Source of the DNA: Corythoichthys intestinalis
Lineage: Eukaryota
DNA: 64,000 nucleotides
Direction: 5' to 3'
Assembly: GCF_030265065.1 (NCBI RefSeq)
Contig: NC_080408.1
Span: forward strand, 22,855,480-22,919,479
Shown here: positions 17,178-19,935 of the stretch, one piece after another
Position numbering within the stretch: position 1 is the stretch's first letter
Layout of the letters: each line of letters opens with the position of its first letter
Notes under the pieces: generated by a model
Told to the model about the DNA's origin: nothing
Databases searched by the model: none
What the model saw: only the letters and a program-made list of their open reading frames with translations
Made by a program: the position numbers and the translations under genes

Positions 17178-18527
17178 AGTAGAGCTGAAACGAATACTCG
17201 AGCAACTCGAGTAACTCGAGTTTAAAAACTGATCCGAGTAGTTTTATTCACCTCGAGTAATCGTTTATTTTGACAGCTCTAAGCATCACGTTTTGCTCGG
17301 ACTACTTTTAATGCGGGACAACGCGCTGATGTCACGTGCGTAGAGGAAGAAGCAAAAAAAAAAACTTACTGCAGCCGACAACCGCTACAAACGACGCCGA
17401 CGTTGCTAAATACTAGCCCGCACATGCTACATTAGTTGCAGCTAGCGTCTGGTAAGTCTCATAGAGATCACATGTATGTTGAACTAGATGCGCAATGACA
17501 GACTAGGCCGCGTCTGGGCAGCGTTAGCAAACAGCCGCCATCTTAAAGCAGTAGAGCGCTAAGCGCTAATAAAAAGCGCTAAGCGCTAATATATAAGGTT
17601 AACGTTACTGTCACTACTAGCTCATCTTACGTTAGCCCTGCGGAGGGCTAGGTTTCAATCAATTAAAACCACTTTCGATGCGTGGCTAACGTGTCTTACA
17701 TACAGGCTTTAACATAACATAGCGTTGTGGAGTGATAAGGGTGTCAAATAAAAACTCAATAATGCTAACTATCAATTTTAGCTCAGTAGTCATTGCTGGA
17801 TAAAACACCAAGTAGCACTAGTCCCTAATGTGCTCCAATACAGCCTGTATCATACATTTATTTTGAACAGTGCAAAAACTCAAAATCCTATCAGGACCTT
17901 AACTAGAACTTAAAAATGGCTTGACACAAATAGAAATTCAATTGAAAAACGTGGGGGAAAATCCTAACTTTTAAGTGATGTGTGTTATCAAGCGTAAAGG
18001 CATTTTTAGGTGTGTGTATATATATATACATACTGGACTGTCTCAGGAAATTAGAATACACAATATTCTAATTTTTTGAGACAGTCCTGTGTATATATAC
18101 AGGACTGTCTCAGGAAATTAGAATACACAATATTCTAATTTCCTGAGACAGTCCTGTATATATACACAGGACTGTCTCAAAAAATTAGAATATTGTGTAT
18201 TCTAATTTTCTGAGACAGTCCAGTATATATATATATATTGTAAATAAGATCTAAAGGTTTTTTGAGTGAAAGCAGTGAATTAGTCTTTTTTTTTTTTTAA
18301 TTCTAGTTACATCTGAGATGCAATTGTTCGCTGTTTTCAACAATATACATAAAAAATAAAGACATTGATTGACTGAAAATGATAAAATGTCTTGTTTTCT
18401 CATGTAAATCTATAATTGCTCTTCACCTAAAAATATATTTGTTTTATCCGATTACTCGATTAATCGATAGAATTTTCAGTCGATTACTCGATTACTAAAA
18501 TATTCGATAGCTGCAGCCCTAATCAGA
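17178..18527. mobile_element. hAT-like non-autonomous element (TAGAGCTGAAACGAATACTCGAG ... CTCGATTACTAAAATATTCGATAGCTGCAGCCCTAATC)
   Basis: Inverted termini with subterminal ctcgag / cgattactcgat repeats. It carries the hairpin array and is partly included in the tandem duplication. Confidence 0.45.
18019..18232. repeat. Tandem array of 3 perfect hairpin palindromes (unit CAGGACTGTCTCAGGAAATTAGAATACACAATATTCTAATTTCCTGAGACAGTCCTG separated by TATATATA)
   Basis: Each unit is an exact 25-bp inverted repeat around a 7-nt loop. The array recurs at 19030-19140 because of the tandem duplication. Confidence 0.85.
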
Positions 18528-19935
18528 AGTAAATCTAACAAAGCATTTAAAGACAATCAGGAAAATCACGCCATCGTATGTTGGAATGACAGATTTCAAA
18601 TGATCCTTGAAGGCTAAATATTCATTAGGTTAGATTGATGTACAATGTATCTGAGCATGTGTAAGGGCGTACCGCAAGCAACACGTCACTTCCTCTCATT
18701 AACATTCATGGCGTTACCTACTGCTGCTAAGGGGGGACACGCTATCCCTGATAGGAAATGAATGGAAATCATGTCCGAAGGAGATGTTTACAGAGCTAAA
18801 CCTACAAATTCTCTCTTAAAATGATGTCCCTGGTGCCAAATTCACTGGCAAAGATATAGAAGAACTTAAAAATGTACAGTTAAAGAGATGGTTTGAGTGT
18901 CGAGGGCTGAAAAAAATGAAAAAAACGAGCCAACTTAAGCATAGCCTTGGCTTTTTTTAATCGACACCTTTTTTTTACGCGACTGACAATGATATTCTCC
19001 GGTTTCAACAAGCTTTCCTTTACCAATATTAGAATATTGTGTATTCTAATTTCCTGAGACAGTCCTGTATATATACACAGGACTGTCTCAAAAAATTAGA
19101 ATATTGTGTATTCTAATTTTCTGAGACAGTCCAGTATATATATATATATTGTAAATAAGATCTAAAGGTTTTTTGAGTGAAAGCAGTGAATTAGTCTTTT
19201 TTTTTTTTTAATTCTAGTTACATCTGAGATGCAATTGTTCGCTGTTTTCAACAATATACATAAAAAATAAAGACATTGATTGACTGAAAATGATAAAATG
19301 TCTTGTTTTCTCATGTAAATCTATAATTGCTCTTCACCTAAAAATATATTTGTTTTATCCGATTACTCGATTAATCGATAGAATTTTCAGTCGATTACTC
19401 GATTACTAAAATATTCGATAGCTGCAGCCCTAATCAGAAGTAAATCTAACAAAGCATTTAAAGACAATCAGGAAAATCACGCCATCGTATGTTGGAATGA
19501 CAGATTTCAAATGATCCTTGAAGGCTAAATATTCATTAGGTTAGATTGATGTACAATGTATCTGAGCATGTGTAAGGGCGTACCGCAAGCAACACGTCAC
19601 TTCCTCTCATTAACATTCATGGCGTTACCTACTGCTGCTAAGGGGGGACACGCTATCCCTGATAGGAAATGAATGGAAATCATGTCCGAAGGAGATGTTT
19701 ACAGAGCTAAACCTACAAATTCTCTCTTAAAATGATGTCCCTGGTGCCAAATTCACTGGCAAAGATATAGAAGAACTTAAAAATGTACAGTTAAAGAGAT
19801 GGTTTGAGTGTCGAGGGCTGAAAAAAATGAAAAAAACGAGCCAACTTAAGCATAGCCTTGGCTTTTTTTAATCGACACCTTTTTTTTACGCGACTGACAA
19901 TGATATTCTCCGGTTTCAACAAGCTTTCCTTTACC
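18120..19935. repeat. Two tandem copies of a ~908-bp segment (18120-19027 and 19028-19935) at about 99-100% identity
   Basis: I could find no mismatch over ~790 bp (18236-19027 vs 19144-19935). The junction ctttacca|atattagaat lies inside a hairpin unit. Confidence 0.85.

Follow-up and report, generated by a model that had tools for sequence, protein, structure and literature searches.

The window analysed here (the whole 64-kb stretch of DNA, in which all positions are given) contains a nest of transposon sequences, part of which is present twice, head to tail (Table 1). The host of the nest is a non-autonomous hAT-like element. It is bounded by an 8-bp target-site duplication (ATCAGAAG at 17172-17179 and 18522-18529) and has short terminal inverted repeats (TIRs) of the YARNG type, which is the hAT terminal inverted repeat consensus, with seven of eight positions matching between the 5' end (TAGAGCTG) and the reverse complement of the 3' end (TAGGGCTG). 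The same exact 8-mer is found a third time at 19433-19440. No ORF of at least 60 aa lies within the element. The 3' end of a second member of the family, 84% identical and with TAGGGCTGCAGC, is located at 13401-13480 on the minus strand. The zf-BED ORF located at 50884-51246 is possibly part of a hAT element, though not necessarily of the family of the 1342-bp element. The segment that is duplicated lies within an intron littered with transposons, in a genome that appears to be that of a fish, and no coding sequence is touched; when three putative exons of the WD-repeat gene to which the intron belongs were used as queries in a homology search, no match was returned.

Table 1. Coordinates of the features at the duplicated locus (TSD, target-site duplication).
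Feature	Positions	Strand	Remarks
Left 8-bp TSD ATCAGAAG	17172-17179	.	exact 8-mer
Non-autonomous hAT-like element, 1342 bp	17180-18521	+	termini TAGAGCTG... and ...CAGCCCTA; subterminal CTCGAGTAA and TCGATTA repeats
Hairpin array, 221-bp near-perfect palindrome	18018-18238	.	three 57-bp Tc1/mariner TIR-TIR units
Hairpin units 1, 2, 3	18033-18089, 18100-18156, 18167-18223		67-bp spacing; TA-rich spacers between and on both flanks
Central loop CACAA, palindrome symmetry centre	18126-18130	+	perfect duplicated segment begins at next base
Copy 1, perfect part	18131-19025	+	100% identity to 19042-19936
Copy 1, content			right palindrome arm; hAT 3' 283 bp (18239-18521); TSD (18522-18529); unique intronic flank of 496 bp (18530-19025)
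Filler AT, 2 nt	19026-19027	+	unlike distal flank (CC, 19937-19938) and left arm (AA, 18115-18116); three aligned contexts read directly
Junction segment ATTAGAATA-TTGTG	19028-19041	+	reverse complement of 18126-18139
Copy 2	19042-19936	+	both diagnostic sites, 19120 and 19138, as in the right arm; third hAT TSD (19433-19440)
Unique DNA past distal breakpoint (CCTGCCCTGTC...)	19937-19990	+	array similarity not above chance

Within the hAT-like element lies the most perfect palindrome of the window. Its two arms (18018-18125 and 18131-18238, 108 nt each) are 98% complementary around a 5-nt spacer and differ only at 18209 and 18227, i.e., at two of the 108 sites. Its AT content is 71%, and the predicted fold is a single hairpin of -112.4 kcal/mol (z = -30). 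Read in the direct sense it is an array, to which TRF assigns a period of 67 and 3.1 copies. Each 57-bp unit consists of two Tc1/mariner TIRs fused back to back, and every one of these CAGG...CCTG units stands between TA-rich spacers (TGTATATATA and TATATATACA) that provide the TA target-site flanks. Scanning a metagenome collection with the unit TIR returned a single contig (L001), and scans of genome and viral collections gave no matches. The match in this contig, 90-92% over 35-40 nt, is to the end of a Tc1-like transposon (...CACAATATTCTAATTTTCTGAGACAGTCCTG followed by TA), which lies some 300 bp downstream from an ORF that encodes a Tc1-type transposase C-terminus and ends in ...GFPTKY*. 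A diverged relative at 43859-44743 of the window has a weak, sub-threshold DDE_3 match (24.2 bits, cut-off 28.6). The reverse complement of unit 1 differs from unit 3 by one base and the direct comparison gives ten differences, so units 1 and 3 mirror each other, which shows that one rearrangement centred on a palindrome had already taken place at the locus. The units resemble Tc1/mariner-derived MITEs and fold-back mini-elements in being two TIRs flanked by TA, but they are extremely reduced, with 57 bp and no internal sequence, and unlike such MITEs the three derive from inverted duplication and not from three separate insertions. A structured RNA or miRNA identity of the hairpins was ruled out, the matches on both strands being of the generic long-hairpin kind and sub-threshold (best Rfam microRNA precursor family, among mir-581, MIR1120 and others, 50.9 bits against a gathering threshold of 100); a tRNA search found none.

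A sequence-only reading of this DNA had described the repeat as a tandem duplication of 908 bp. A near-perfect head-to-tail repeat is indeed present, but its period is 911 bp, three bases more: 900 of 905 positions match at this offset, against about 240-285 at each of the other offsets from 900 to 919, 908 included. The ranges in which no differences had been seen (18236-19027 and 19144-19935) are not in register and share only 27% identity, whereas the register-corrected ranges (18236-19025 and 19147-19936) are 100% identical across 790 bp. The whole perfect segment extends over 895 bp with no mismatch, and homopolymer lengths agree throughout, T13 included. BLAST extends the alignment to 909 bp (18117-19025 with 19028-19936, 99.45%), and all five mismatches correspond to the hairpin loop. 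The copies are adjacent, in direct orientation and separated by a single novel junction at 19025/19026, as in a tandem duplication. No other long repeat of the window is 100% identical (those of 100 bp or more outside this locus are 76-95% identical), so a chance origin of the 895-bp perfect repeat is excluded. The hAT-like 3' end previously noticed inside the copies is confirmed by the TIR and the 8-bp TSD. The hairpin array, also thought to be included, is involved insofar as the proximal boundary falls on its symmetry centre; copy 2 has only the right half (half of unit 2 plus unit 3), followed by the 3'-terminal 283 bp of the hAT, its TSD and ~496 bp of unique flank.

The text of the junction between the copies had been correctly transcribed: 19018-19025 reads CTTTACCA and 19026-19041 reads ATATTAGAATATTGTG. 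The order is thus ...TTTACCA, AT, ATTAGAATA-TTGTG and the right arm. In the 14-nt segment, 9 nt come from the left arm and the remaining five are the central loop, in flipped orientation, and these 9 nt are all that is kept of the opposite arm; 18018-18139 and 19028-19149 match in inverted orientation at 98%. The start of the duplicated unit coincides with the symmetry centre of the palindrome, perfect identity beginning at the first base past the loop. The probability that one of two breakpoints falls by chance within about 14 nt of the palindrome centre is roughly 1e-3 in 64 kb. The junction sequence can also be given as TTTACCAATATTAGAATATTGTG, with a 31-mer around TTTACCAATATTAGAATATTGTGTATTC, and the loop orientations are told apart by the k-mers ATTAGAATACACAATATTCTAAT, with AGGAA upstream in the left-arm context as against CCAAT upstream.

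At the other breakpoint (19025/19937) no repeat, low-complexity run or structure was found, and a local alignment of the array with 19900-19990, around 19936/19937, scored 9 (95th percentile of random sequences, 10). The TIR motif is absent outside the array across the window and there is no microhomology at the junction. Because of the two filler bases and the inverted 14-nt segment, the junction is best read as a non-homologous join. This bears directly on the earlier proposal that the palindromes had seeded a replication slippage or an unequal exchange. An origin driven by homology would involve unequal crossing-over between hairpin units, or slippage between direct repeats bracketing the duplicated unit, and the array is rich in short repeated and self-complementary sequences. 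However, a repeat is required at both ends of the unit, and at the distal end neither a TIR motif nor a similarity to the array above chance level exists; direct repeats or microhomology at both ends are missing, and the junction holds filler and an inverted segment in place of the hybrid repeat of NAHR or slippage. Judged from these breakpoints the homology-driven origin appears essentially refuted, and we regard it as very improbable. A transposase-mediated origin was rejected as well because the cuts of Tc1 enzymes fall on the outer ends of the TIRs (between TA and CAGG) and those of hAT enzymes would fall at 17180 and 18521, whereas the boundaries lie at an inner TIR-TIR fusion and in unique DNA.

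The complete identity of the copies suggests a duplication that is either very young or else not biological. The description of the repeat as a very recent event is therefore only one of two ways to account for zero differences, since a non-biological origin would equally produce them. In an assembly artefact, an alternative that the sequence-only reading had itself raised, the genome would have one copy, and contigs or read paths overlapping by ~0.9 kb would have been abutted and not merged. The second path would start at the palindrome centre, where hairpins and TA tracts end reads or graph paths, or where a heterozygous inversion of the loop (CACAA vs TTGTG) opened a bubble. A unit of ~0.9 kb is about as long as one Sanger read, or as a long-read overlap that stays sub-threshold. 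The identity is perfect with all homopolymers included, and the boundary coincides with a structure of -112 kcal/mol, of a sort notoriously hard to sequence and assemble. In addition, the copies differ in the five loop bases only, which is how a haplotype difference would look where a falsely duplicated block begins, and the edges of heterozygous sites have been reported to be prone to false duplication (PMC9516828). Known false duplications (PMC9516828, PMC8081667) are likewise adjacent near-identical copies on the same scaffold with a boundary at a feature that is hard to assemble. They are, however, mostly separated by gaps or depth gaps and contain heterozygous or erroneous k-mers (PMC9516828), whereas here the copies are not separated by a gap and no such positions exist besides the loop. 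The 64-kb window has no N gap (0 N) and no other perfect repeat, the sequence at 19025/19937 offers no reason for a contig to end, and the 2-nt filler with the inverted 14-mer resembles a repair junction. Palindromes break reads and assemblies as readily as chromosomes, so that a boundary at the palindrome centre does not separate the two readings, and neither does the lack of differences. The flipped loop needs a strand swap through the palindrome, and an overlap error, which reproduces the genome faithfully, would leave its orientation unchanged; on the other hand, the loop could have been inverted in copy 1 by an independent event, or its orientation could be a heterozygous polymorphism. 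All in all, we consider the artefact a substantial possibility, well short of an even chance.

The explanation that we favour, and hold to be fairly probable, is that of a real, evolutionarily very recent, non-homologous 911-bp intronic tandem duplication whose proximal end was made at the centre of the transposon-derived 221-bp palindrome. The anatomy of the junction (2-nt filler, 14-nt inverted segment and a distal breakpoint with no homology) is that of end joining; perfect identity, the boundary at the palindrome centre, the absence of a gap and the agreement of homopolymers between copies add to this. The palindrome would be extruded as a hairpin or cruciform, or would stall a polymerase. 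The resulting DNA end would start at the symmetry centre and bear the bottom strand of the centre (9 nt of arm and the flipped loop TTGTG). It might be produced by one of the two possible resolutions of a cruciform, giving a hairpin-capped end that is then opened off-centre; alternatively, a polymerase may briefly copy the opposite strand of the palindrome and switch back, with the same product. The partner of this end would be a 3' end 0.9 kb downstream, either on the sister chromatid or within a repair intermediate that had been extended; joining the two without microhomology, and with the addition of two bases that have no template, would result in a tandem duplication. The sequence of the junction limits what the intermediate can have been, because the strands must be swapped through the palindrome. 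Some simpler schemes could be discarded. A P-nucleotide model, in which the hairpin is opened without a loop, predicts ...TTGTG directly followed by CACAA..., which is absent; fold-back priming from a resected end as the sole event would give an inverted and not a direct duplication; and an ODIRA-type inverted triplication (PMC10766183) does not agree with direct copies that have no inverted copy in the middle. Cruciform resolution, replication template switch and aborted strand annealing are indistinguishable from one junction.

A way to place this junction is to compare it with rearrangements whose mechanism has been studied. At the human palindromic AT-rich repeats (PATRRs), which are >90% AT, a cruciform is cut by the resolvase GEN1, and the hairpin-capped ends are processed by Artemis and joined by NHEJ (PMC7999016). 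The locus described here shares with them an intronic palindrome that is near-perfect, a few hundred bp long and capable of folding into a hairpin or cruciform, a breakpoint at the symmetry centre and a non-homologous join that lacks microhomology. It differs in AT content (71%), in being made of transposon ends, in having the palindrome as one partner only of a local 0.9-kb tandem duplication instead of a translocation, and in a centre that is kept with a flipped loop, not symmetrically deleted. The flipped loop is only compatible with cruciform extrusion followed by resolvase and Artemis processing. Tandem duplications of 100 bp-10 kb, with a median of about 1 kb, arise from end-joined repair intermediates (PMC8654963), and a head-to-tail repeat of 911 bp is within this range. 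A short, locally templated insertion as seen in polymerase-theta-mediated end joining (PMC8654963, PMC7368036) may also be present at the junction, which nevertheless has just the 2-nt filler where microhomology is typical; the inserted 14-mer is the inverted palindrome centre, and a hairpin intermediate fits it equally well. Finally, template switching between the arms of inverted repeats inverts spacers (PMC8604942, PMC8794818). The 5-nt spacer reverse-complemented in one copy (CACAA vs TTGTG) is akin to such template-switch mutations (PMC8604942, PMC8794818, PMC5453318), although here the inversion stands at the edge of a 911-bp duplication and is not an isolated multinucleotide change.

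Another route would lead to a formally identical product. A 0.9-kb segment could have been excised, circularised by connecting 19025 to the palindrome centre and recombined homologously into its own locus. Small extrachromosomal circles of about 0.9 kb are known. Hairpin-capped extrachromosomal intermediates at inverted repeats have also been proposed (PMC10766183). Reintegration of a circle takes more steps than a direct unequal join, and no feature of the sequence specifically demands a circle, which makes it hard to believe as the origin of this repeat.

The exact products of the junction were looked up as well. Neither the junction-spanning ORF (18947-19057) nor its single-copy counterpart (19858-20004) had matches, and the same was true of the controls, i.e., neighbouring ORFs (20494-20814 and 16819-17064) and a Tc1 transposase ORF 4 kb away (24061-24972). 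Since the controls away from the junction were missing too, the lack of a match to the junction ORF is evidence neither for nor against the duplication. A locus-specific 27-mer was absent from the metagenome and prokaryote genome collections.

The nesting of the elements and their divergence make the history of the locus legible. A non-autonomous hAT inserted first, creating the TSD ATCAGAAG, and a 57-bp Tc1/mariner TIR-TIR mini-element sits in a TA tract inside it. An inverted duplication about the loop of the mini-element gave rise to the three-unit palindrome, with arms now 2 of 108 sites apart, and lastly the segment from the palindrome centre to 19025 seems to have been duplicated head-to-tail. 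Real or artefactual, the duplication is of an ordinary, known kind and reveals no new type of element. It has no evident function; the intron has become longer and the fragile full palindrome is intact in copy 1.

If the repeat is an artefact, it is of use to those who curate assemblies, as a warning that perfect tandem repeats of less than 1 kb should be checked against reads when they begin at palindrome centres. If it is real, the order hAT insertion, Tc1 mini-element, palindrome and tandem duplication would be a clean single-locus case of transposon debris making fragile secondary-structure sites that drive structural change. Polymorphism and continued instability of the site would then be probable, as copy 1 retains the full palindrome. 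More tentatively, and we think this rather unlikely, the junction may have preserved, as a natural "fossil" in the germline of a vertebrate, a DNA end that was capped by a hairpin or resolved from a cruciform. Were this so, the flipped loop and the 9 nt from the opposite arm would tell the strand whose hairpin was joined, and a palindrome that an earlier inverted duplication had built out of Tc1/mariner ends could seed a local tandem duplication, beyond translocations and inverted amplifications.

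When the duplication region was compared with itself at each offset from 900 to 919 (with 17000-21000 read directly), only the offset of 911 aligned the two copies, with 900 of 905 positions matching; all others, including the 908 bp proposed by the sequence-only reading, gave about 240-285. The tandem duplication is therefore present in the sequence, far beyond chance, but with a period of 911 bp. The identity of ~790 bp noted earlier between 18236-19027 and 19144-19935 is recovered once shifted by 3 (18236-19025 and 19147-19936 are 100% identical over 790 bp), whereas the original ranges are out of register and only 27% identical. 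The perfect copies, 18131-19025 and 19042-19936, extend over 895 bp with zero mismatches and zero indels. BLAST extends the match to 18117-19025 against 19028-19936 (909 bp, 99.45%), all five mismatches being consecutive, at 18126-18130. Zero differences in 895 bp give a 95% upper bound of 0.33% for the divergence of the copies. With assumed substitution rates of 1e-8 to 1e-9 per site per generation, the copies would have arisen less than about 2e5 to 2e6 generations ago, provided that gene conversion does not homogenise them.

If an assembler had placed two paths with a 0.9-kb overlap end to end, the picture would be identical. Against such a false duplication, the 64 kb contain no gap (the count of N is 0), homopolymer lengths are the same in both copies throughout (including T13), and the whole-window self-comparison found no other perfect long repeat. 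In most published false duplications a gap or depth-gap lies between the copies, and heterozygous or erroneous k-mers are present (PMC9516828). The remaining repeats of at least 100 bp outside the locus are transposon copies with 76-95% identity. A direct repeat of about 1 kb (45767-46740 and 47960-48973, 87% identity, starts about 2.2 kb apart) represents either the trace of an older duplication at this site or two insertions of the same transposon. The duplication locus was not found in other sequence collections, in which control look-ups for the same locus were equally empty.

The duplicated unit is located between putative plus-strand exons and contains no ORF of more than 50 aa, so that the duplicated region is most likely intronic. 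Among the three putative exons only 26912-27259 has a Pfam match, weak and sub-threshold, to WD40 / TEP1 beta-propeller, and no homologue of the three was found in a large protein collection, a surprising result for a vertebrate WD-repeat gene.

Putative exons and transposon-derived elements in the window
Feature	Position	Strand	Characteristics
Putative WD-repeat-like host-gene exons	16819-17064, 21438-21794, 26912-27259	+	ORFs, e.g. ...GNLHLWKWETTMEICNIPAHEGRVHACAV...
Non-autonomous hAT-like element	17180-18521		Termini TAGAGCTG... and ...CAGCCCTA
Tc1-like transposon	23734-25366	- (ORF)	ORF 24061-24972, open 303-aa transposase: HTH_SB, HTH_Tnp_Tc3_2, DDE_3
Diverged copy of the hairpin-unit Tc1-like family	43859-44743		ORF 44027-44458 ending ...GFPTKY

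The hAT-like element has subterminal repeats (CTCGAGTAA and TCGATTA) and is flanked by a perfect 8-bp target-site duplication, ATCAGAAG (17172-17179 and 18522-18529); a second member of the family is represented by its 3' end at 13401-13480 (minus strand, 84% identical). A 20-bp motif is found twice in tandem at 17555-17594 (AGCGCTAAGCGCTAATAAAA, AGCGCTAAGCGCTAATATAT), with AGCGCT palindromes, and the adjoining interior (17354-17563) recurs at 261-391 and 28261-28412, so that the interior belongs in part to another dispersed repeat. A 120-aa ORF with a BED zinc finger (50884-51246, minus strand, Pfam E = 1.3e-9) may be a hAT-type transposase N-terminus or a domesticated ZBED gene.

Inside the hAT-like element is the hairpin array (18018-18238; 67-bp period and 3.1 copies by Tandem Repeats Finder), whose 57-bp units consist of CAGGACTGTCTCAGGAAATTAGAATA, a 5-nt loop (CACAA or TTGTG) and TATTCTAATTTCCTGAGACAGTCCTG, with TA-rich spacers between them. 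The 26-nt arm does not occur in the window outside the array. A metagenome scan with this arm retrieved one contig, Ga0073988_10022603, where the arm sequence (...ATCACAATATTCTAATTTTCTGAGACAGTCCTG, followed by TA) forms the terminus of a Tc1-like element; an ORF ending ...GFPTKY (stop) lies about 300 bp upstream of this terminus. The diverged copy within the window has a weak DDE_3 match in its ORF, below threshold (24.2 bits against a cut-off of 28.6), and the hairpin-unit TIR is recognisable in decayed form at its 3' end, ...CTTTATCACATTATGCTATTTATTTGAGAAGGACAAGTA. Taken together, these two elements show that each hairpin unit is formed by both Tc1/mariner terminal inverted repeats fused back to back, the loop itself being TIR sequence. 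The metagenome contig (1-844) folds back, with 1-120 matching the reverse complement of 725-844 perfectly, and has a 41-nt perfect palindrome at 643-726; this reflects either rearrangement of a Tc1 copy or chimeric assembly, and the contig represents a further palindrome associated with this family. The Tc1-like transposon at 23734-25366 belongs to a different family; the inverted repeats on its two sides (23734-23949 and 25148-25366) are about 219 bp long and 95% identical, and related TIR copies are located at 35397-35871. A structured RNA or miRNA was rejected for the hairpins: the Rfam matches are generic hairpin matches, since they fall far below gathering scores, on both strands and to many unrelated miRNA families.

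No other palindrome in the window comes close to the array in perfection. The arms of the array (18018-18125 and 18131-18238), which flank the 5-nt unit 2 loop, are 98% complementary and differ only at 18209 and 18227; as single-stranded DNA the array folds into one hairpin (-112.4 kcal/mol against a shuffled mean of -19.1, z = -30). Fold-back or MITE-like self-complementary segments of 226-298 bp at 7654-7947, 61059-61270 and 62526-62749 are only 76-80% complementary. Variants private to unit 1 (CTGG on the outer side, AAAAAA on the inner side, CACAA as the loop) are mirrored in unit 3, which has 1 base different from the reverse complement of unit 1 and 10 in direct comparison. These mirror-image variants rule out the palindrome as a mere by-product of a repeated palindromic unit and show that the three-unit array arose by an inverted duplication centred on the loop of unit 2. 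This palindrome-centred event predates the tandem duplication, given about 2% divergence between arms against 0% between tandem copies.

A way to approach the origin of the duplication is to compare its three breakpoint contexts: proximal (palindrome centre, 18126-18130), ...CTCAGGAAATTAGAATA-CACAA-TATTCTAATT...; junction (19025/19026), ...CCTTTACCA-AT-ATTAGAATA-TTGTG-TATTCTAATT...; and distal (19936/19937), ...CCTTTACCA-CCTGCCCTGTC.... The perfect copy begins at the base directly after the central loop, the symmetry centre of the 221-bp palindrome. Upstream of perfect copy 2 there are 9 nt of left-arm sequence plus the reverse-complemented loop (19028-19041 is the reverse complement of 18126-18139), preceded by a dinucleotide, AT, matching neither of the parental sequences. 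Further into copy 2, the two positions that distinguish the arms (19120 and 19138) both carry the right-arm variant. Similarity between the distal breakpoint and the array does not exceed chance (best local score 9, random 95th percentile 10), and no notable secondary structure was found at this breakpoint. The replication slippage or unequal exchange suggested earlier is excluded because both require repeats at both unit ends and would leave a hybrid repeat where the copies meet, and neither is present; the confinement of the arm to the array within the window and the filler AT speak against a homology-driven origin. Transposase cutting was also discarded, as Tc1 and hAT enzymes cut outer element ends and not an inner TIR-TIR fusion or unique DNA.

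The junction bears on the assembly explanation as well. Palindromes and TA tracts are classic end points for reads and graph paths, and a heterozygous loop inversion could account for a second path "starting" at the loop; yet filler plus an inverted segment is typical of repair, and at 19025/19937 there is nothing to account for a contig end. We regard a false duplication as possible though doubtful, and a real one, with the copy pair genuinely present in the genome, as reasonably probable.

For a real duplication, the join was most likely non-homologous, one partner being an end or nascent strand from the palindrome centre after a strand swap. Cruciform extrusion and resolvase cleavage could have generated hairpin-capped ends, later opened and joined by NHEJ, a known route (PMC7999016). 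One of the two resolution axes would connect the right flank with the bottom-strand hairpin, and opening 9 nt 5' of the tip would yield a top strand composed of the final 9 nt of the left arm, then TTGTG, the right arm and the right flank, i.e., the sequence found from 19028 onward; the other axis would leave the loop unflipped. Alternatively, a nascent 3' end at 19025 may have added 2 bases, switched to the opposite strand within the palindrome, copied through the loop and switched back in the symmetric arms before 19120 to continue rightward; spacers are known to be inverted by template switching between inverted-repeat arms (PMC8604942, PMC8794818). Thirdly, synthesis in an ordinary end-joined repair intermediate might have halted at the palindrome, while copy 1, which has the long arms, separately underwent an inversion of its loop; in C. 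elegans, tandem duplications from such intermediates span 100 bp-10 kb, with a median of about 1 kb (PMC8654963). The three routes are indistinguishable from one junction, and the missing microhomology mildly disfavours a classical polymerase-theta join.

Human PATRRs share with this locus a palindrome with a breakpoint at its centre, but their AT content is >90% (71% here), their outcome is another and here only one partner is palindromic. Small end-joined tandem duplications match in size and orientation although not in microhomology, and template-switch spacer inversions are among the closest parallels. All the components are of known kinds (hAT MITE, Tc1 TIR-TIR mini-element, palindrome fragility, tandem duplication, false duplication). 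The duplication has no evident effect on coding or regulation; the locus is a tidy new instance, whose junction would be informative if real.
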